From positions 77,259-141,258 of the forward strand of contig CAYMOY010000001.1 in NCBI GenBank assembly GCA_964392435.1: a DNA stretch of 64,000 bases, in the 5' to 3' direction. Shown in pieces: positions 15,340 through 41,668 of this stretch (its first letter is position 1; each line of letters starts with the position of its first letter). Both the position numbers and the translations under genes were made by a program. This DNA comes from Candidatus Micrarchaeota archaeon (GTDB lineage: Archaea; Micrarchaeota; Micrarchaeia; Anstonellales; Anstonellaceae). The notes under the pieces are model-generated. The model worked only from the letters and a program-made list of their open reading frames with translations, searched no databases and was not told the DNA's origin.

Positions 15340-16782
15340 TTAGCTGTGGCTTCCGCCTTTGCTATCTTCCCACATCCTGCGGATAAGGGAGCGCAGCTCC
15401 TCGCGCTTGCGTTCAAACTCGTTTTCCTCTTCTTGGGATAGTTTGACTTTTTCCACAAAAGATGGGGATTCGCCATCCGCCGCTCCGGAAATCCGCCCAG
15501 GTGCTGTTCCTTCTGGCTTTATTATCTCGAATTCCTTTATCAGCACCCTGACCCTCTGCTCAAGCAATGACTGTTCTCGCTTCAGCTCAGCAAGCAGGAA
15601 AGATGCCTTTTGCAGCTCGTTTTTGGGGATTCCTGCCTGGCCGCCTTCCTTGATTATCTCAAGGGCGGCCATCTGCGAACTTATAACCCGGCCAATCTCC
15701 TTTTGCTTGGAAAGCAGCGCCTCGTTTGCGCGGCTGACCTCATCTGCTATGTCAACATATTCGTTTTTCAGCTGCTCTAGCGTTTCAAGGCTCTTTCCCT
15801 GCTTTTGCGCGGTTGCCTCAAAGGCGGCCTGCTGCTTTTTGACTGCCTGCAAGGCTTCCTGGAGCTGGGACGCCACCGCGGTCTTTTGCCTTTTTGCATC
15901 CTCCTCCATCTTGGCAAGCTCCGCAAGCTGCCTCTTTCCAATTGAGCCTTCCTTGCCGGTGATTGATGCGAACTGGCCGCGCAGCTGCTCAATTTTCTGC
16001 TCAAGCTCCTTTTGTTCTTCCGAAACGGCTTCTATAGCCCCTGCAAGCTCTGTTTTCAGGTCGTCTATTTTCTCAAGCTGGTCCTTCATTTCATCTATGT
16101 CTTTCTGATATTCGCCGCTTTCCACATTTCGGCGCATCTGTTCGGATCTTGCTTCAAATGCCCCGAACAGGTCCTCGTTTTCGGAAAGCTGCTCTTTCAG
16201 GGCGGATTCGAATTTCTCCAAAAGCTCAATCTCGCCCATGAGGTCTCTTGCACCCTTTTTTCCAGCCCCCTGCGACAGCCCGCTCTTTGAGCCGAATGTC
16301 TCGACTTTTTTCTTGAGCTTTTCCAGCTTCCTGGCAGCCTGGCTGACCGCTTCTTCCTGTTCTTCTGAAAGCCGGGCAATCTCATCTTTGAGCCTCTGGA
16401 TGTCCTGCGGCGCCATAGCGGCCGCATTCTGGGCGCTTGCTATCTCGGCTTGCATCTCTGAGAGGTCCTGCTCGCCTTTTTCCACCTTGGAGAGCAGCAT
16501 TTCCAGCTCCTGCTTGGTCTGGCCCGCCTTTGCCTGTAGCTTTTCGCTTTTTTTAGCCAGATATTCCGGGCTTTGGGCCTTCCAGGCAAGATAAACCTTA
16601 GTCAGCTTGTATTCCACATTGATGAGCCCTTCCTCCTCTAGCACATGGGCCCAGTCCTCAACTGTGCGCAGAGGCAGGGAAAGCTCGCGGGCAGCCTGCC
16701 CCATCTCAATCTTTCCCCGCTCCCGCAAAAGCTTTATCAACTGGTCCACTCCAGTCGAAATAAGAAGATCATCAAGACCCAT
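15340..16782 (-). CDS. N-terminal winged-helix plus long coiled-coil protein
   Basis: GQAARELSLPLRTVEDWAHVLEEEGLI followed by about 350 aa of E/K/Q-rich heptads. Confidence 0.8.
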   Translation of the reverse strand: MGLDDLLISTGVDQLIKLLRERGKIEMGQAARELSLPLRTVEDWAHVLEEEGLINVEYKLTKVYLAWKAQSPEYLAKKSEKLQAKAGQTKQELEMLLSKVEKGEQDLSEMQAEIASAQNAAAMAPQDIQRLKDEIARLSEEQEEAVSQAARKLEKLKKKVETFGSKSGLSQGAGKKGARDLMGEIELLEKFESALKEQLSENEDLFGAFEARSEQMRRNVESGEYQKDIDEMKDQLEKIDDLKTELAGAIEAVSEEQKELEQKIEQLRGQFASITGKEGSIGKRQLAELAKMEEDAKRQKTAVASQLQEALQAVKKQQAAFEATAQKQGKSLETLEQLKNEYVDIADEVSRANEALLSKQKEIGRVISSQMAALEIIKEGGQAGIPKNELQKASFLLAELKREQSLLEQRVRVLIKEFEIIKPEGTAPGRISGAADGESPSFVEKVKLSQEEENEFERKREELRSLIRRMWEDSKGGSHS

Positions 16783-16881
16783 ATGTTTTCCGATGCAAAT
16801 CCAATCCTTATAAAGATTTGTGCGGAAGTCCTATTCTGCAGCAAGGCGATAAATCCGCCTTTTTTCCGCGCGGGGTTTTCC

Positions 16882-18093
16882 ATGGCAGGCTCAGATTTTG
16901 ACATCAAGCTGAAACGCGAGGCGCAGACCTCCCTCCAGGTTTTCAAGGACCAGTCATTGCTGCGCAGGAAATTCGGCGAGGAAGCGGTTAAGCTGTACAA
17001 CCTTATCGACAGCGGCAAAACTGCCCAAGAAATGATTGCACAGCTTGGGATGTCTGAGGAGCAGTTCATAGGCATCCTGGAATTCATGAACAACAATGCA
17101 ATGGTCAGCGTCATTCCTTCGGATTCAGCATCTCCAGAACCAAGGGGAGGCAGCCAGCTGCCATCGGATGCCAAAGGGCCCGCCGGGGCTGGAGAGGACA
17201 ACGAGCCGGATGAGAAGATGGACTCGGATTCGCTCTCCCCTCTGGAAAAGATACTCAACGACAATTACGGGGCGCTGGGGGTCCGCGTATACGGTTTGAT
17301 AGATGGGGAGAAAACCGCCGAGGAAATACTTCGGGAAACCGGAGTATCCGAGGCAAAGCTGGTTGAGATTCTCGAGTTCATGGACGAGCAGGGCATCATC
17401 AAACTCGAAAAGCCAAGTGAGAAAAGCGGCGCGAAAGATGGTTCGGATGATGCGGAAGATGGTTCGGACGCTAAAAAGGACGAGGAGGCTGCCCGCGAGC
17501 CGCGCTTCAAGCCCATGATAGAGGAAGAACCTGAGGAAAAGCCTTTCGAGCTCCCCAAGATCCCCGAAAAGCCCCAGCAACCTGAGAAGAAAAAGGAGGA
17601 AGAGCCGGATGAGGACATAATAATGGTCGATGTTCCCGCCATGGCAAAGCTCACACTTATGCAAAAGGCAGTAATTTTGACCGAGCTTTCCACCAAGTTC
17701 GGCAAAGGCGCGCGTGAGCTCGTGGATTTGGTCGACGGAAATCGGGATTTCGTTGAGCTTTCGCTTTCAACAAGGATGTCGTTTTTCGACATTGATTCGA
17801 TTATGGCTTATTTCGGGAAGAAAGGATTCTTCACTTTCCGTGTGCTTTCCAGGGAAGAGATAAAGAAGAAATATGGCGAAGATGGTTTTGCAATATACAA
17901 GCGTTATGGCAGGGATGGGCTGCTCCTGTATGAAATGATAGGCAAAGAAGCCTCGTTGAAGGACATAATAGCAAAAAGCAAGGTGGATGCCGACAGGGCA
18001 ATAGAGATATTCGTGTTCATCCACAAGGTTCTTGGGCTTGACATCCCGCTCGACCGAGACATCATCTATCGGCAGCTGGGATTGAAAAAATGA
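16882..18093 (+). CDS. Protein with four winged-helix-like repeats and acidic linkers
   Basis: Repeats (K/Y)xG..(Y)xLIDGxKTAxE...ILEFM; start refined to MAGSDFDIK. Confidence 0.8.
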   Translation: MAGSDFDIKLKREAQTSLQVFKDQSLLRRKFGEEAVKLYNLIDSGKTAQEMIAQLGMSEEQFIGILEFMNNNAMVSVIPSDSASPEPRGGSQLPSDAKGPAGAGEDNEPDEKMDSDSLSPLEKILNDNYGALGVRVYGLIDGEKTAEEILRETGVSEAKLVEILEFMDEQGIIKLEKPSEKSGAKDGSDDAEDGSDAKKDEEAAREPRFKPMIEEEPEEKPFELPKIPEKPQQPEKKKEEEPDEDIIMVDVPAMAKLTLMQKAVILTELSTKFGKGARELVDLVDGNRDFVELSLSTRMSFFDIDSIMAYFGKKGFFTFRVLSREEIKKKYGEDGFAIYKRYGRDGLLLYEMIGKEASLKDIIAKSKVDADRAIEIFVFIHKVLGLDIPLDRDIIYRQLGLKK

Positions 18094-18130: not shown

Positions 18131-18565
18131 TCAGTTTCTTATCCTGGAAAGCGCCATCGCCTCAATCGCAAGTTCAGCTTCGCTGTAGCCGCCCTTTTTT
18201 TCCCCCCACTCTGATAGTGCAAGCGATTGGGCGCATGTCAGCTTCAGCTTCGCCTTCAGTCTGGCTATGGGAACCCTCCCCGGGCAAACAAGCACAAAGT
18301 CGTCCGGGCTTGCAGCCCCGACTTTTCTTGTGGCGGAGGAAAAGTTCACCTCTCGCGACAAGAACAGCAAAGCCTCGTTTGCTAGCTTTGGAGACAAATT
18401 GCCCCCCGAGGCGAAAGATTCCCGCGCCAGGCGGAAACACGCTTCCAATTCCTTTTCTGTCCTGGCGGCGGAAGGGGAGATCAGAAGCAAATCCCCTATG
18501 GAGGAGGAAAGCCCTACCAGCTCTTGCATGCTTTTTGCCGCTGATGAGCATCTTAGGACCATCAT
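18131..18565 (-). CDS. cgi121: KEOPS subunit Cgi121
   Basis: ARESFASGGNLSPKLANEALLFLS...VGA; about 144 aa; start refined. Confidence 0.7.
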   Translation of the reverse strand: MMVLRCSSAAKSMQELVGLSSSIGDLLLISPSAARTEKELEACFRLARESFASGGNLSPKLANEALLFLSREVNFSSATRKVGAASPDDFVLVCPGRVPIARLKAKLKLTCAQSLALSEWGEKKGGYSEAELAIEAMALSRIRN

Positions 18566-18646
18566 GTCATCATCGTCTGGTGGAACATTTAAAAACACAA
18601 GCCAGAAAATAGAGCCTGCATTCGTTATTCTTAAGGAGGTTATGCG

Positions 18647-19030
18647 ATGGAGAACTATCACGGGGCATCAGGCTCAACAATCAAGGGTACGGGGGGCAAG
18701 CGCGGTCACGCCGGAGACAAGAAGCTGCGATTGGTTGGCGGAACTTTCACTGCGACCAAGATTGGCAAGGAAGACATGCGCCGCGTCAAGCACAAGCGCG
18801 GCAATGTGCGGAAGATAAAGCTCAAGACGGCGAAATTCGTAAATGTCCTCACGAAGGGGGGCAAGATGCAGAAAGTGGCAATGAGGACTGTTCTTGAGAC
18901 TCCGGACAACCGCCACCACGCGCGTCAGAATATCGTTACAAAAGGCGCAATCGTAGACACTGAAATCGGCAAGGTGAAAGTCACCAACCGTGTCGGGCAG
19001 GACGGCGTGGTGAACGCCAAGCTACTGTAA
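18647..19030 (+). CDS. rps8e: 30S ribosomal protein S8e
   Basis: GTGGKR, RHHARQNIVTKGAIVDTEIG, VTNRVGQDGVVNA. Confidence 0.97.
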   Translation: MENYHGASGSTIKGTGGKRGHAGDKKLRLVGGTFTATKIGKEDMRRVKHKRGNVRKIKLKTAKFVNVLTKGGKMQKVAMRTVLETPDNRHHARQNIVTKGAIVDTEIGKVKVTNRVGQDGVVNAKLL

Positions 19031-19034
19031 GGGA

Positions 19035-19097
19035 ATGAAGTTCACCACAAGTTGCGCGCATCAGCGCAACTGCGTCGTCAACGCGAAGCTGCTGTAA
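19035..19097 (+). other. Degenerate duplicate of the rps8e 3' end, or a 20-aa sORF
   Basis: MKFTTSCAHQRNCVVNAKLL* versus eS8 tail VKVTNRVGQDGVVNAKLL*. Confidence 0.7.
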
Positions 19098-19313
19098 ACG
19101 TTGGCGAGACAGCCGTGTCGCAGCACCACGGGCGGATGGTGGACGCAAGCTTCTTTGAACAAGCAGGAATTGCCCTGCGCCGCGCTTGCAAATTCGCGTC
19201 CATCAGACGAGTCTCCATTTTTCACCCAGATTTTGGCATAGTTCGCGCACAGCAGCTTGCCATCCCCTTTTATTCCTTTCTAACCAGATTAGCCCACATA
19301 AAGAGGTGTGTGA

Positions 19314-19997
19314 ATGTCAATGGCTATAGCTAAAAACATGCCCGTTCCTGCGCAAGAATCTGCGAAGCTCAACATGCGTGTTCTTCAAAATCCGCAGGTG
19401 AGGCGGTTCAACAGGCAGTTCTTTTCCATCTGCAAGCTTGCCGATTTCGAACGGAAAATCGGGGTTGAATCTGGATTTTGGTCCGCGCAGGGCAATGTCA
19501 GCAACTCGTATAAGGTTGATCACAAGTTCTCTGTGCTTGCCAAATCCTCTGCGAATGCGGCATTCGCAGGGCATGGCGTGGGGGCCGGGCCCAACGAGAA
19601 CTTTGTGAAACAGGAGATTCTCGCCATTTCGTTTGATGGCGCCATGAATATCAGCAAGGAAAGCCTGCGCGCCAATACGCTGCGATACATATTCCAGCAT
19701 GGCGCAAAAAGCGCGGTAAATCTTTACCATGGCGGAGAAGATAAGAAAGCAATATTCCTCATAAGCAATCTGCTCCATTTTTTCAAGTCTGAAAAGGAAA
19801 TTCCAGATTATCTTCGGTCCGAGCTTCTGCCGCTTATCAAATCAACATTGGAAAGCGTAACTTTATTTGGGGGCAGGACGCTTCTTGACTTTCTTCCTGG
19901 TCAAGTGCGAGGCATTATGGATGACTTTTCCGGCGCAGCCGCAGGCTCAACAGTCTGGCGCGTGAAGAAAAGGCACCCGGCATTAAAGAATCTCTGA
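19314..19997 (+). CDS. Hypothetical protein
   Basis: 227-aa ORF preceded by GAGGTG SD; no recognised motif. Confidence 0.6.
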   Translation: MSMAIAKNMPVPAQESAKLNMRVLQNPQVRRFNRQFFSICKLADFERKIGVESGFWSAQGNVSNSYKVDHKFSVLAKSSANAAFAGHGVGAGPNENFVKQEILAISFDGAMNISKESLRANTLRYIFQHGAKSAVNLYHGGEDKKAIFLISNLLHFFKSEKEIPDYLRSELLPLIKSTLESVTLFGGRTLLDFLPGQVRGIMDDFSGAAAGSTVWRVKKRHPALKNL

Positions 19998-20007
19998 GCT
20001 TTCACAG

Positions 20008-21174
20008 CTAAAGCGAAAGCAGGATGGAGGGCACGATTATCAGCCCCATCACATGCGTTCTTCTTATCCCGAGCAAAGGGGGCAGCAGCCCTGCGGCGGC
20101 GCAAGTGGAGAAAAGAAGCAGACCAGCCCCTCCAGATATCACTGCGACCGCAAAGACCAGATAGGAGAGTATGCCGATGTTCAGCGCCCTCAAATCAAGG
20201 TTCTGCAGCAGGCTTGCTCGCTTGGAAAGGGCCATCAGCAAAAACGCGCAGACGCCTATTGAAAGCAGAAGGACTCCGATTACAGAGGGCAGGTCGCCAG
20301 GCAGGACAGGCCTTATCCCATTGAGAATGGCAATAGAGCCTTCCCTTGCCTTGCCTATCGAGAGCAGTGCGGCAAATGCGAATACTGTATGCGAGGCGGC
20401 AATCGAGGAGACCAGCGCCAGAAATTTCCGCGGTTCGCGCATAGACAGCACAACAGACGCAAAAACCGCTATTTGCGCAGGAGCCGCGATGCCTGGCAGC
20501 AAATCCGAGAGCATCCCCAGCAGCACGCCTGCCGCAACATAGGGCAGGAAATCCAGCCTTGTTTTTCCGGCAGCCTGCCTCGGCAGCGCCCGGGTGGCTG
20601 TAAATGAGAGCAATATCCCGCTTCCTGCGAAAAGCCCGCAAAAAGCCGGGAACAGGGGGTCGTTTATCGGCCCTCGAAGCGAAGCAATGCCAATTGCCCC
20701 TGAAAGCAGGAAAACAGATGCGGCCACCGCAATCTTTTTCCACTGCCCCTCAGAAGCGAGCAGGAATGAGGACGCCAGCACAAGCACGATTGCCATGTGC
20801 GGCTGCAATATGGAATATGCTGCGGGCAGGAAGTAAAGGGAGACTGGTATGAGCAGGGCAGAGGCAACCGAGGCAATCATCAACGATGAGGCGCAGACCA
20901 GAAGGGCTTCCCGCCCCCTGCCCTCAAGGGCCATCTGGTGCCCGGGCAGAACCGAAACCACTACGTTCTCATCCGGCACAGAAAGGAAAATTGATGGAAA
21001 GAACTGAAAAACCAAGTGCGCGCCAAGCACGGCCACTATAATGTAAAGGAGCATATCTGGCGCGATGGGGAGGGTGGCGACGATGGAGGCGATGGTGTTG
21101 GCATGGACTCCGGGAAGCAGACCTGAAAATATGCCAAGCAGCATTCCTGCGGCTATTGCAAGCGCCTGCAGCAT
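20008..21174 (-). CDS. DUF112 / TctA-like multi-pass membrane permease
   Basis: GIFSGLLPGVHANTI, VVSVLPGH, about 10-11 hydrophobic helices. Confidence 0.85.
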   Translation of the reverse strand: MLQALAIAAGMLLGIFSGLLPGVHANTIASIVATLPIAPDMLLYIIVAVLGAHLVFQFFPSIFLSVPDENVVVSVLPGHQMALEGRGREALLVCASSLMIASVASALLIPVSLYFLPAAYSILQPHMAIVLVLASSFLLASEGQWKKIAVAASVFLLSGAIGIASLRGPINDPLFPAFCGLFAGSGILLSFTATRALPRQAAGKTRLDFLPYVAAGVLLGMLSDLLPGIAAPAQIAVFASVVLSMREPRKFLALVSSIAASHTVFAFAALLSIGKAREGSIAILNGIRPVLPGDLPSVIGVLLLSIGVCAFLLMALSKRASLLQNLDLRALNIGILSYLVFAVAVISGGAGLLLFSTCAAAGLLPPLLGIRRTHVMGLIIVPSILLSL

Positions 21175-25565: not shown

Positions 25566-28500
25566 GTGAAGGAGAATATTCGCATGGCGGCCAATGACAT
25601 TTTCCCCAGTTTCGTCGAATGCAGCCGGCAGGCTCGTGAAATCGAGCGCAAACTGCTGCCAGTCAAGCCTTCGCAGATTTCAGGCAAGCTCCGCCCGGAA
25701 GGCTCCACACAGATATTTCCCCGCGAGTTTGAGGAATACACCGTTGCTTACCTTGTTTCCGAGGCGCAAAAAGTAGAGCGCAAGCTTTTCGCCGCCAATT
25801 ACCAATCGGCTCCAAATGTCTCCGTGGCGCAAGCTTCTTCCAAGGTTGAGCTTGGGCAGAAAGTGGCAGATGAGCTGGGCCAGTTTGCCTCAGGGGCAGC
25901 CCAACAGCCTGGCTATCAAACCACGCCCAAGGTGCCAGGCATTCCCGCCAAAAAAGATGCTATCTGGGGCGGGGCAGGTGCTCAGGCTCAGCCAGAGGGG
26001 CCATCCTCGGGGGATGAAAAAATTTCCCCGCCAGCATTGCCATACCAGCAGGGCATTCCATCCGAGGTCCGCATTGCCAAGGAAGCCGAACTTGAGGCCG
26101 AGGCGAAGATGGCAAACGAGTCCGCCCATCACCCTGCGCAATTTGGGGGATATGGAAGCGGCGAGCCTGGCGATGCTTCGCGCAAGCTGCGCTTACAGGA
26201 CCAGCCCTCCTCGTCCGGTCTGATGTCCTCTTCAAAGCTTTCTCCAAGGCTCAGGGCTATAATCGAGGAGAAGCTGAGGAAAGAGGAACAAGCCGCCCAG
26301 GATGCGCCAGTGGAAATAGAAAAAGCATCTTATGAAAAAGAGGAGCAAGAAGAAAAGAATGAAGAGCCTCCCGTGCTCTCCTCGCGAGAGAGGCTGTTGC
26401 GGAAATTGCAGCGCGAAAGGCAGATTAGGGAGGGCGAGGCTCTGCTTCAAGGGCAGGAAAGGCAGCCTGCAAAAGTGCTTCCAAGAAAACTGCAAGAGCC
26501 TGCCGCTGGAGATGAAGAACTGCCTGAGCAAGAAGAGCAGGGGCAGCAGCCAGAGCAAGAGGGGCGGGAAGACTTGCAAAGGCCCCCTGAGGATGAGGAG
26601 GAGATTCAGGAGCAGGAAAGGCAGCCTGCCAGAGTGCTTCCAAGAAAACTGCAAGAGCCTGCCGCTGGAGATGAAGAACTGCCTGAGCAAGAAGAGCAGG
26701 GGCAGCAGCCAGAGCAAGAGGGGCGGGAAAACCAGCAAGAAGAGCAGGAGGTTTCAGGGCAGGCAGAAGGGGCGGAAGAAGAAACCCCCTCGCAAGTGGA
26801 GCAGCCGCTCGAGGTTGCCTCTGCAAAGGCAAGTGCCCCTGCCAAAAGCTCTATTTTGCAAAAGCAGCCTTTGGCATATGGGCAGGTGGCGCAAAAGGGC
26901 GCGTCCGCGCTCCCACCATCATCCCTAAGTTCTGGCAGAATACTCATAAAGCCCATTTTTGCCGGGCAGGAAAACGAGCAGGATGAAAACCAGGGGGCGC
27001 GGGACGATGGGGCGGAAAAAAGGATGGAGCGCATCTCACGCATAGTGCGGGAGCTGTCCCCGGACAGGTACAAGGCGCAGGCAATAGCGAAAAAACCAGA
27101 CGCCTCATCCGAAAAAGGCGATGCAAAGCCTGGCGAACCAGCTGCGCCTTTGCGGATGGAAAAGCGGCCAACCGCAAAACCGGTCCTGAAGAAAAAAGCC
27201 AAAATTCAAGTGAATGAGCAGCAGCCTTGGGAAGAGGCGCAAGAAGAACAGCAGGAGCCCCCATCAGATGCGGAAGGGCCGCAGGGGCAGGAAAACCCGC
27301 AAGAGGAGGCGCAGGAAGAGTCCGAGGTACGGCAAAGGCTCGGCTGGAACCAGCCTCAAGCGAAAAAAAAGCTGGCGCCAAAAGTTTCTGGGAAAAGACA
27401 GGGCGAATTGGCTAATGCGAAGAGAAAGAATTTGCCTGCTGGGGCGCAACAGCAGAAGAAGGCGGGAAAAGCGCAAAAGTCTTTGCCTGCGGCAAAGGAG
27501 CCTTCTGGGGGGAAAATAAGGTCCCAAGACCAGGGCGGTTTCCCTAAGAAGCAGCAGGTGGCTTTGCAAAAGCAGTCAAAATCGCCCCAAACCGCCCGGG
27601 CAAGGCAAGCGGCATCGCCCTCCAAAGAAGTTTTCCAATCCAAATCCCCTCCAATGCAATCAGCAAAGCGGCAGCTGCCACAGCCCCAAAAATCCGTGGC
27701 ATACGCACAACGCGGCACTCCTGTTCAATATCAGGATGAAAGACGCCCTGCCGCATCTTCGAGCCAACCATTGCCGTCCCGCCAAGTTGCGCCTGCTGCA
27801 AACAAGCCTCCAACCGTTTCTCGACCAAGCGTGGCTGCAAGTGCGCGACCAGTTTCACGGCTCTCGCCATATTCCGCGCCGCCTGCCAGGCCTGCCTCCG
27901 GTCCCTCCCTGGGGCGGCCCATCATGCGCCAGGTCCAAGCTCCAACAGCCTATCGCACTTCTCCCCAGCCAATTCCAAGGGCAGGATCCAGGCCGCGCAT
28001 TCTTCCGGGGGGTGCGCAACAGATGGCGCCACAGACATATCTGCCTCCAAGAAGAACGATAATCCGGCCGCAAGCTTTGGGGCAAGAATCTTTGGCTGTG
28101 GGGCAGCCAGAAGAGGATTCGCAACCTATGCGGGAAACTGGCGGATTGCCAAAAAGGCGCGCAGCATATCCGCAGCCTGGCAGTGGCGAGGCTCTGCTTC
28201 AAGGGCAGGAAAGGCAGCCTGCCAGAGTGCTTCCAAGAAAACTGCAAGAGCCTGCCGCTGGAGATGAAGAACTGCCTGAGCAAGAAGAGCAGGGGCAGCA
28301 GCCAGAGCAAGAGGGGCGGGAAAACCAGCAAGAAGAGCAGGAGGTTTCAGGGCAGGCAGAAGGGGCGGAAGAAGAAACCCCCTCGCAAGTGGAGCAGCCG
28401 CTCGAGGTTGCCTCTGCAAAGGCAAGGCTCAGCGCCATATCGCAGGTTTCGGGTCTCAAGCCCAGGAAAAACGTGCTTGACGAGCCGGTGCAAAAGACGC

Positions 28501-28967
28501 CTGAGCAGCTTGAGGAAGAAAAGCGCATTTCTCAAAAAGCGCAGGTGCTCTCGCAGATGGAGGGGCAAAAGCAGCACGAGATATCAGGTTCAGCTTCCCT
28601 TCCTTTGGAAGAGGAAGACTTGGAAGTGCCAAAGCCGCCGCCAGATGATTCCGAATCCGGGCAGCCGGATTACGATACTGCAAAATACGGGCTGCGGCGC
28701 AAGATGCAAGAGGATGACATCCGGGCGAAGACCAAGGAGGAGGTTGAGGCGATAATGGAGGGCTATGCAAAAGATAATCTTGTATGGCTCTATGAAATTT
28801 ATTCCATGGGCGGGATGCCCCGCGAGGACTTCCTGCAAAAAGTAAAGGAGAAAATGGCCGAGGAAAAAATCGCCCTGCCGCAAGTTGGGGGTGAGGAGCC
28901 ACCTCCGCCTTCCAATCCCGCCCTTGCTAATTTGGGCAAGGAAATAGACAAGAGATATAAAAAGTAG
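25566..28967 (+). CDS. Giant low-complexity Q/E/P/A-rich protein with internal repeats inside the pilus operon
   Basis: 1133-aa uninterrupted ORF; short folded-looking termini; start may be ATG at 25584. Confidence 0.8.
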   Translation: MKENIRMAANDIFPSFVECSRQAREIERKLLPVKPSQISGKLRPEGSTQIFPREFEEYTVAYLVSEAQKVERKLFAANYQSAPNVSVAQASSKVELGQKVADELGQFASGAAQQPGYQTTPKVPGIPAKKDAIWGGAGAQAQPEGPSSGDEKISPPALPYQQGIPSEVRIAKEAELEAEAKMANESAHHPAQFGGYGSGEPGDASRKLRLQDQPSSSGLMSSSKLSPRLRAIIEEKLRKEEQAAQDAPVEIEKASYEKEEQEEKNEEPPVLSSRERLLRKLQRERQIREGEALLQGQERQPAKVLPRKLQEPAAGDEELPEQEEQGQQPEQEGREDLQRPPEDEEEIQEQERQPARVLPRKLQEPAAGDEELPEQEEQGQQPEQEGRENQQEEQEVSGQAEGAEEETPSQVEQPLEVASAKASAPAKSSILQKQPLAYGQVAQKGASALPPSSLSSGRILIKPIFAGQENEQDENQGARDDGAEKRMERISRIVRELSPDRYKAQAIAKKPDASSEKGDAKPGEPAAPLRMEKRPTAKPVLKKKAKIQVNEQQPWEEAQEEQQEPPSDAEGPQGQENPQEEAQEESEVRQRLGWNQPQAKKKLAPKVSGKRQGELANAKRKNLPAGAQQQKKAGKAQKSLPAAKEPSGGKIRSQDQGGFPKKQQVALQKQSKSPQTARARQAASPSKEVFQSKSPPMQSAKRQLPQPQKSVAYAQRGTPVQYQDERRPAASSSQPLPSRQVAPAANKPPTVSRPSVAASARPVSRLSPYSAPPARPASGPSLGRPIMRQVQAPTAYRTSPQPIPRAGSRPRILPGGAQQMAPQTYLPPRRTIIRPQALGQESLAVGQPEEDSQPMRETGGLPKRRAAYPQPGSGEALLQGQERQPARVLPRKLQEPAAGDEELPEQEEQGQQPEQEGRENQQEEQEVSGQAEGAEEETPSQVEQPLEVASAKARLSAISQVSGLKPRKNVLDEPVQKTPEQLEEEKRISQKAQVLSQMEGQKQHEISGSASLPLEEEDLEVPKPPPDDSESGQPDYDTAKYGLRRKMQEDDIRAKTKEEVEAIMEGYAKDNLVWLYEIYSMGGMPREDFLQKVKEKMAEEKIALPQVGGEEPPPPSNPALANLGKEIDKRYKK
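26433..26570 (+). repeat. Intragenic repeat copy 1 (138 bp)
   Basis: Near-identical to 28185-28322; encodes GEALLQGQERQPAKVLPRKLQEPAAGDEELPEQEEQGQQPEQEGRE. Confidence 0.9.
26612..26833 (+). repeat. Intragenic repeat copy 2 (222 bp)
   Basis: Appears identical to 28205-28426 by manual comparison. Confidence 0.9.
28185..28426 (+). repeat. Intragenic repeat copy 3 (242 bp)
   Basis: 5' end matches copy 1; the remainder matches copy 2. Confidence 0.9.
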
Positions 28968-41515: not shown

Positions 41516-41668
41516 GCCCCTGTAGCTCAGGGGTAGAGCGCGTGCATGGTAGAACCCTTTTTCCGCCTCCAGGCTAATGCGGCGAAAAAAGCGTTCACGG
41601 AAAACCTGTTGGTTCCGCGATTGGCTCCATCAAGCACGAGGTCGAGGGTTCAATTCCCTCCGGGGGCT
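41516..41668 (+). tRNA. tRNA-Thr(GGU) with 81-nt intron at 37/38 (41552-41632)
   Basis: Acceptor GCCCCTG/CGGGGGC; anticodon stem CGTGC/GCACG; T-arm GAGGG-TTCAATT-CCCTC; BHB core ATGG/CCAT; U73; no CCA encoded. Confidence 0.93.

Follow-up and report, generated by a model that had tools for sequence, protein, structure and literature searches.

The end of the ribosomal protein gene rps8e, in a 64-kb stretch of archaeal DNA (64,000 nucleotides (nt), called the window below), raises a simple question: why are its last codons written twice? The gene (18647-19030, plus strand) encodes a protein, eS8, of 127 amino acids (aa) that matches the Pfam family Ribosomal_S8e (PF01201) at 3.8e-20, with the match reaching the last profile position. 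It closes with GTG GTG AAC GCC AAG CTA CTG TAA, which reads VVNAKLL* (the asterisk denotes the stop). Four bases past this stop begins an open reading frame (ORF) of 20 codons in the +1 frame (19035-19097), and it closes with GTC GTC AAC GCG AAG CTG CTG TAA, again VVNAKLL*. Our results show that this small ORF is the first unit (unit 1) in a short series of tandem 55-68-nt modules, an array that a clade of Micrarchaeota carries 3' of rps8e. The array is conserved, covarying and specific to this locus. It is neither an independently translated peptide nor the attachment-site (att) scar of a large integrated element. With slightly better than even confidence we regard it as a conserved array of structured modules whose evolution proceeds through recombination among its direct repeats.

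The synonymously recoded copy had been pointed out in an earlier note made from the letters alone, and it is real: 20 of the 24 bases of the two ends are the same, and all four differences are synonymous third-position changes. A repeat search extends the match to 24 of 29 bases (19002-19030 against 19069-19097). As a chance control, all 360 ORFs of 80 aa or longer on either strand were examined by comparing the last 24 nt of each with the 200 nt downstream. No downstream match in the window exceeded 16/24 except at two ORF ends, that of rps8e (20/24) and that of an antisense ORF within an internal repeat of another gene. A chance match was rejected on the basis of this control over all ORF ends. 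The other gene is an ORF of 1133 aa (25566-28967, plus strand) with an internal direct repeat at ~26600-27200, seen via antisense ORF ends as a 22/24 match 159 nt apart. Its protein has no Pfam match, and the gene lies directly upstream of type IV pilus-like genes (T2SSE/T2SSF).

The eS8 protein puts the window in Micrarchaeota (DPANN archaea). For comparison we used 128 loci around eS8 homologues (numbered with an L) from genome, metagenome and other assemblies. Fourteen other Micrarchaeota genomes have one or two intact units of 55-68 nt directly after rps8e (L008 (=L067), L013, L014 (=L070), L016, L020, L061, L062, L063, L066, L069, L071, L072, L121 and L126), and the extra ends in relatives are one or two copies of VVN[G/A][K/R]L[L/I]*. 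Decayed arrays are present in L006, L007 and L012. An assembly artefact is unlikely, given that the same arrays recur in independent assemblies (L008 and L067, L014 and L070) and that L121 and L126 have orthologous arrays. Searches with an nhmmer profile and a covariance model over the 64-kb window and the 128 loci (~0.6 Mb) found no unit elsewhere: full-unit matches occur only directly 3' of rps8e and only in Micrarchaeota. The marks of a miniature inverted-repeat transposable element, namely several insertion sites per genome or near-identical copies in unrelated hosts, were not seen in these ~0.6 Mb, where a single locus is occupied. On the eS8 tree the arrays are patchy, scattered among array-less relatives.

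On its 5' side the array is bounded by the real stop codon, and on its 3' side by either a T-rich terminator or the convergent gene tctA. In most relatives tctA converges on rps8e with a gap of 0-30 nt or an overlap, and the array occupies the gap; in L008 and L072 the stop of the last pseudo-end (the copied gene end that closes a unit) even overlaps the tctA stop. A T-tract comes right after the last pseudo-end in relatives, as it does after the gene stop in array-less genomes. Whole units also duplicate in place. L020 has two near-identical units (2139-2255) with a common non-consensus tail, VNRRRI*, the product of a recent tandem duplication that copied a unit already in decay. Separately, one eS8 variant (P0012, 146 aa) has lost the usual stop and continues for 19 more residues (…VVNGILLSGDSPITAKTPGVYNPRHS), possibly by stop loss into the downstream region.

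Units align well with one another and follow one order: stop codon, spacer of 0-11 nt, a segment X', hairpin B, a TGTGT or CGTGT linker, and the pseudo-end. The Val-Val-Asn(-Gly/Ala) codons just upstream (X) recur in X' as their reverse complement. Together X and X' make up hairpin A, of 9-13 base pairs (bp), whose loop contains the final codons together with the stop. Hairpin B has 7-8 GC-rich pairs, and the pseudo-end repeats, in direct orientation, the final seven codons and the stop. The parts of the array in the window are as follows.

19007-19073, plus strand: proximal module M0, consisting of X0, tail0, spacer, X'1, hairpin B1 and linker; 67 nt; missing from L121.
19007-19015, plus strand: X0, the Val-Val-Asn codons GTGGTGAAC; 5' arm of hairpin A.
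19016-19039, plus strand: loop of hairpin A, made up of the four final codons, the stop codon TAA (19028-19030) and 9 nt of spacer.
19040-19048, plus strand: X'1, GTTCACCAC; 3' arm of hairpin A and perfect 9-bp complement of X0.
19050-19071, plus strand: hairpin B1, a perfect 8-bp stem with a 6-nt loop.
19074-19097, plus strand: pseudo gene end 1 (X1 and tail1), GTCGTCAACGCGAAGCTGCTGTAA, reading VVNAKLL*.
19098-19158, plus strand: decayed unit 2, following unit 1.
19099-19108, plus strand: X'2, CGTTGGCGAG; pairs with X1 through one G.U pair.
19113-19131, plus strand: hairpin B2, weakened, within decayed unit 2.
19136-19158, plus strand: pseudo-end 2, ATGGTGGACGCAAGCTTCTTTGA, with an Asn-to-Asp change and a 1-nt deletion.
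19218-19234, plus strand: first T-runs past the array (TTTTT, TTTT), a candidate archaeal terminator of the rps8e transcript, proposed from sequence only.

A covariance model built from 17 modules matches 19004-19076 with 71 bits (E 7e-18), which is the sole real match in the window; unit 2 scores under the thresholds of both nhmmer and the covariance model. The perfect 8-bp hairpin that the earlier note had placed in the middle of the copy was found again as hairpin B1. Its weaker similarity between VKVT and MKFT at the start of the copy is better described in another way: 19040-19048 is the exact reverse complement of the Val-Val-Asn codons at 19007-19015.

Base pairing is preserved through change. 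Among the 17 modules, 86% of paired cells hold standard pairs, against 74% after shuffling and 25-42% when the partner is slid. Double-sided changes are seen in 11 of 21 pairs, and the covariation score was reached by none of 500 shuffles. Compensatory changes affect six of the eight pairs of helix B. In hairpin A even the third positions of the Val-Val-Asn codons covary with X' (CG, GC, UA and AU), and in L072 an AAT codon pairs with ATT. RNAalifold independently predicts both helices. The family is absent from Rfam: the window had no match at the gathering score, and none at E up to 5 was found in 18600-19400. Tandem Repeats Finder reported nothing at the array because the units are too diverged.

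Is the copy translated? That it would be a mini-peptide mimicking the C-terminal strand of eS8 had been one suggestion, and the unit in the window does open with an ATG four bases past the stop and stays open for 20 codons. The pseudo-ends moreover diverge as codons do. Over 20 alignable copies from 15 genomes, gene-versus-copy differences by codon position 1, 2 and 3 number 31, 28 and 92, and copy-versus-copy differences 7, 3 and 19. The stop is in register in 19 of the 20 copies, with TAA, TAG and TGA all in use, and the amino-acid changes are mostly K/R and L/I swaps, as among real eS8 ends. At the same time the copies are far from identical to their own gene end (mean 16.5/24); in L008 the Arg codon of the three ends is AGG, CGC and CGT, and in L014, L016, L062 and L126 the tails differ from one another in encoded sequence.

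This codon-like conservation of the last seven codons and stop speaks for a peptide. Among 18 units from 14 genomes, the unit length modulo 3 is 0, 1 and 2 in 6, 7 and 5 units, respectively, and the frame relative to rps8e varies with it. The ATG at the unit start is found in the window only; four units are without any ATG, GTG or TTG, and several have internal in-frame stops. Before the last 7-8 codons (upstream of C/R-V-V-N) no peptide conservation was found across the units, nor does any unit have a Shine-Dalgarno sequence at a usable distance. The peptide model fails because the unit length modulo 3 varies and most units are without the opening start codon; we consider it the least probable of all readings, close to negligible. 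A conserved small ORF downstream of rps8e was likewise not seen in relatives, where start, frame and peptide all vary. That the copy is not readthrough of eS8, as also claimed before, agrees with frame offsets of 0, 1 or 2 and with the in-frame stops, and a fixed frameshift extension was rejected on the same grounds. The pseudo-ends thus show codon-like divergence without independent translation.

One way to reconcile these properties would be that the module is skipped in part of the rps8e message, joining the gene body to the downstream end. Such skipping might proceed through a bulge-helix-bulge intron, through take-off and landing of the ribosome on matching codons, or through realignment of the polymerase. 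It would explain at once the independence of frame, the lack of start codons, the codon-like conservation and the retention of the stop, and Micrarchaeota are rich in unusual introns, with a probable long-intron tRNA gene in the window itself. However, the product would be the same as the unspliced one, leaving no obvious benefit. A strict bulge-helix-bulge scan (helix, 3-nt bulge, 4-bp helix, 3-nt bulge, helix) was empty in the window and in L008, on which ground an intron of this type was rejected, and elsewhere it returned only scattered, non-conserved and out-of-frame matches, with no consistent motif. We hold both the skipping and its proposed routes to be very unlikely. As regards the tRNA gene, an Rfam tRNA match of 50.7 bits lies at 41516-41668 (plus strand); its 153 nt probably include a long intron, and ARAGORN reported no tRNA in the window.

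Another possibility is that the array has arisen neutrally from a gene end prone to slippage, whose last ~60 nt are duplicated and lost without any function. The last 57 nt of rps8e indeed form a quasi-palindrome (TCACC/GGTGA, ACC/GGT, CGTC/GACG). The recent unit duplication in L020 fits as well, as do the decayed arrays (L006, L007, L012 and unit 2 of the window) and the many lineages without an array. Constraint would then be only apparent, produced by the youth of the copies and by the way they were found. Against this, the units of distant genomes have derived features in common that are absent from the gene, namely the TAAGT/TAGGT ... TGTGT linkers and the perfected hairpin B, and this helix covaries in six of its eight pairs. 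Third positions of the pseudo-ends are near saturated while first and second positions have changed little, whereas neutral copies should be near-identical when young and scrambled when old. We consider neutral slippage improbable, both as to the origin of the array and as to the apparent constraint.

More can be learned from the closest relatives. L121, whose eS8 is 88% identical to that of the window, has one unit. Its working end, GTCGTCAACGCGAAGCTGCTCTGA, agrees with pseudo-end 1 of the window at 22 of 24 positions and with the gene end of the window at only 18 of 24, and its unit is 73% identical to unit 2 of the window against 55% to unit 1. From these matches it follows that the window is an L121-like locus plus the 67-nt proximal module 19007-19073. 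L126 (87%) has the intact two-unit counterpart of the window array, with the ends VVNARLL*, VVNAKLI* and VINAKLL*. Its first pseudo-end agrees with that of the window at 20 of 24 positions, and the second units are 65-67% identical. The first units are 74% (hairpin part) and 83% (tail) identical, while the genes differ at 56% of fourfold degenerate sites. Because the unit identity is high relative to this divergence, unit 1 is either constrained or was exchanged more recently than the split of the two genomes. That it is far more alike than the fourfold sites is a further point against neutral slippage.

The terminal pseudo-end of L062 agrees at 22 of 24 positions with the working end of the array-less L077. 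L060 and L061, which differ at 16% of fourfold sites, are separated by one clean 67-nt unit indel at the stop codon, and here it is the proximal tail that is orthologous. Taken together with L121, this means that both 'registers' of the indel occur. Deletion between direct repeats with a variable crossover explains both by one mechanism, whereas insertion alone needs two. As judged from these alignments, pseudo-ends are orthologous to working ends in relatives, and real and pseudo ends swap. No signal of a donor-like recombination tract was obtained upstream of the module in L062, L066 and L071, where the gene is too conserved and too saturated for such a tract to be resolved.

Such swapping brings to mind a second suggestion of the earlier note, that the copy is a scar left by an element that integrates into rps8e and supplies a recoded gene end. 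According to this explanation the copies would be attL/attR remnants of an integrase-mediated virus, plasmid or island at the rps8e 3' end. Part of it stands: the copy is a displaced or alternate gene end, as the 22/24 match of L121 indicates, and the general logic of a recoded working end and a displaced native end holds. The gene content downstream varies too, with an ORFan of 227 aa in the window and an ORF of 116 aa in the contigs with eS8 P0002. The element itself is what was not found. Relatives with an element flanked by two rps8e ends are missing: the flanks (2.5-3 kb) of ~45 distinct loci and the whole window were free of distal copies of the gene end. Within 9 kb of rps8e there is no integrase, transposase or reverse transcriptase, and no tRNA or tmRNA (transfer-messenger RNA) adjoins the locus. 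Protein and DNA-pattern scans for viral contigs with the rps8e end gave a single chance match inside an unrelated phage protein.

The repeats also do not look like those of an integrase. An att core was rejected as they are not identical (20/24 in the window, with the mean over the 20 copies given above; 69% identical on average), and the ~40 nt between the copies are not debris but two conserved, covarying hairpins of uniform size. The ORF of 227 aa was rejected as a cargo gene, having no homologue in related loci and belonging to no family. The att-scar explanation is largely refuted, and we give it very little credence.

Combining these observations, we propose the following for the conserved, recombining array. 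Recombination or slippage between the direct X-tail repeats would remove modules. With a crossover at the 5' edge a pseudo-end would be promoted to working end, as in L121, and with one at the 3' edge the old end would be retained, as in L060. Modules would be added by unequal exchange, which may involve diverged lineages. Each pseudo-end would then recently have been, or could become, the end of an essential gene, and internal pseudo-ends would also supply the next hairpin A with its 5' arm and loop. The differences between pseudo-ends would be largely synonymous, with the stop kept, because the ends interchange and serve the next hairpin A. Selection would keep the hairpins, most likely in the rps8e transcript. 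The weakest step concerns their function: from their position we suggest that they may protect, terminate or insulate the 3' end of the rps8e transcript in a compact convergent gene pair.

Several points weigh against this proposal. We infer the role in RNA from base pairing and position. In the helices G.U cells (21) outnumber A.C cells (10-13) only mildly, and many of these cells are in one column; because of this mild excess a sense-strand RNA is favoured but not proven, and a DNA-level hairpin or a structure in an antisense transcript is also possible. The window array has unexceptional folding z-scores of -1.6 (plus strand) and -1.8 (minus strand). A model with deletion only gives the pseudo-ends no direct selection within array-bearing lineages, and still they are intact across saturated synonymous divergence; this requires either a high flux in both directions or some other constraint. 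Different module subtypes are found within one array, and similar proximal modules (AACGGGCGC...GCCCGTT) are found in three eS8 subclades (L062, L066 and L071), which also fits a mobile module. Finally, any function of the array must be dispensable, given that in many lineages it is lost or decayed.

In the strongest of the alternatives, a non-autonomous mobile module of ~65 nt homes specifically to the Val-Val-Asn codons near the 3' end of rps8e. By bringing its own synonymous gene end the module would insert harmlessly and push the native end downstream. Arrays would be records of successive insertions, the newest lying nearest to the gene. The patchy distribution, which extends even to L060 and L061, is as expected for such a module. 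So are the extra proximal module of the window relative to L121, with a pseudo-end corresponding to the working end of L121, and the match of the L062 terminal pseudo-end with the working end of L077. Terminal copies are decayed more often than internal ones, subtypes are mixed within arrays with similar proximal modules in three subclades, and the two arms of hairpin A, X and X', look like terminal inverted repeats.

On the other hand, the orthologous proximal tail of L060 and L061 would require insertion in two registers, where deletion with variable crossover covers both. No second target site turned up in the 0.6 Mb searched; no transposase, integrase or reverse transcriptase is nearby and no viral counterpart was found. 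The common GGGCGC/GCCC of the proximal modules could reflect convergence toward a longer stem, and the orthologous two-unit arrays of the window and L126 point to long vertical inheritance. We regard homing as unlikely, and the insertion order that it implies as equally doubtful. The same low standing applies to the broader idea of either a tiny selfish homing module of ~65 nt or spare, codon-perfect ends kept usable by repeat jumps at the DNA or RNA level. In decreasing order, then, we rank the alternatives to the recombining array as homing module, neutral slippage, RNA or translational jump, att scar and micropeptide.

The surroundings of the array in the window include two further features.

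19314-19997, plus strand: ORF of 227 aa between the array and tctA; context, outside the array.
20008-21174, minus strand: tctA (PF01970), convergent on rps8e.

The window is unusual in that an extra 0.85 kb with this ORFan separates the array from tctA, in this genome only. The ORF of 227 aa is preceded by a plausible ribosome-binding site (GAGGTG); it has no match in Pfam, NCBIfam or PHROG and no homologue in the 128 related loci. Contigs with a 90%-identical eS8 (P0002) have the ORF of 116 aa at this place, on the other strand. The neighbours of rps8e are otherwise housekeeping genes: a KaiC-like ATPase, a Trp/Tyr-tRNA synthetase, a glycosyltransferase, Cgi121, TctA, an amidohydrolase, a PfkB kinase and a pilus ATPase. 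No cas genes are among them.

Divergent from rps8e is the homologue of Cgi121, a KEOPS subunit (18131-18661, minus strand). Its listed GTG-start ORF overlaps the start of rps8e; the product is called at 144 aa in relatives, and the true start is probably further in. Upstream of it, and kept there in relatives, 16645-18093 (plus strand) encodes an acidic low-complexity protein of 482 aa with repeats of the form 'G.T..E.I....G.SE..L..ILEFM' and weak TrmB-like helix-turn-helix matches.

With these results we describe a previously undescribed family of structured, locus-specific repeat modules in DPANN archaea, a group in which regulatory RNA and genome dynamics are almost unknown. Gene-end copies that are not translated and nonetheless evolve like codons offer a test case for recombination between short repeats that imposes protein-level selection on non-coding DNA. 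For annotation the results call for caution: the small ORFs that follow rps8e here are pseudo-ends and should not be annotated as genes. Should the hairpins turn out to set or protect the mRNA 3' end, archaeal gene expression would gain a hairpin-based 3' element. If instead the homing-module or spare-end reading were true, repeated DNA would have a novel way of persisting inside an essential gene with no encoded enzyme.

Compared with known systems, the array resembles several and coincides with none that we know of; no described family with this combination of features is known to us, and literature searches for rps8e and for Micrarchaeota repeats brought up nothing on it. CRISPR (clustered regularly interspaced short palindromic repeat) arrays have a similar period (~60-68 nt), direct repeats of 24-29 nt and more degenerate distal repeats. 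Here, however, the 'spacers' are structured and homologous to one another, the repeats number three at most, the first of them is a protein gene's own end, and cas genes are absent from the neighbourhood. A CRISPR array was rejected since the inter-repeat segments align together and cas genes are missing. In diversity-generating retroelements a near-copy of a gene 3' end also lies just downstream, beside a hairpin. The differences at rps8e (G>C, G>C, C>G and A>G) are synonymous and not adenine-specific, for which reason this candidate was rejected; the repeat is only 24-29 nt long, and a reverse transcriptase is absent from the 9 kb around rps8e.

Translational bypass elements (gene 60 of phage T4 and the mitochondrial 'byp') have a stop codon atop a hairpin and a gap of ~50-65 nt flanked by matching codons. 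The likeness is limited by the fact that eS8 is already complete at the first stop.

Two other systems come closer. Integrative elements that target the 3' ends of genes (tRNA, tmRNA and some protein genes) and bring a replacement end leave direct repeats there. At rps8e, too, a working end and a displaced, non-identical copy lie in direct orientation, and the displaced copy has its orthologue in the working end of a relative. The rps8e copies differ in enclosing only ~40 nt of hairpins, with no integrase, element or extrachromosomal form found, in forming arrays of one or two units, and in showing both indel 'registers'. Repetitive extragenic palindromic elements and bacterial interspersed mosaic elements (REP/BIME), as well as terminator or stabiliser hairpins, resemble the array in their tandem, small, GC-rich and covarying hairpins between convergent genes, in variable copy number and in patchy distribution. 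Archaeal termination is thought to depend on T-tracts, and we know of no requirement for hairpins in it. Unlike REP/BIME-like elements, the rps8e array is confined to one locus per genome, one of its hairpin arms is coding with the stop codon in the loop, and every unit closes with a codon-preserving copy of the gene end. The array is best filed as a combination of two known themes: direct repeats of gene 3' ends and intergenic hairpin repeats.

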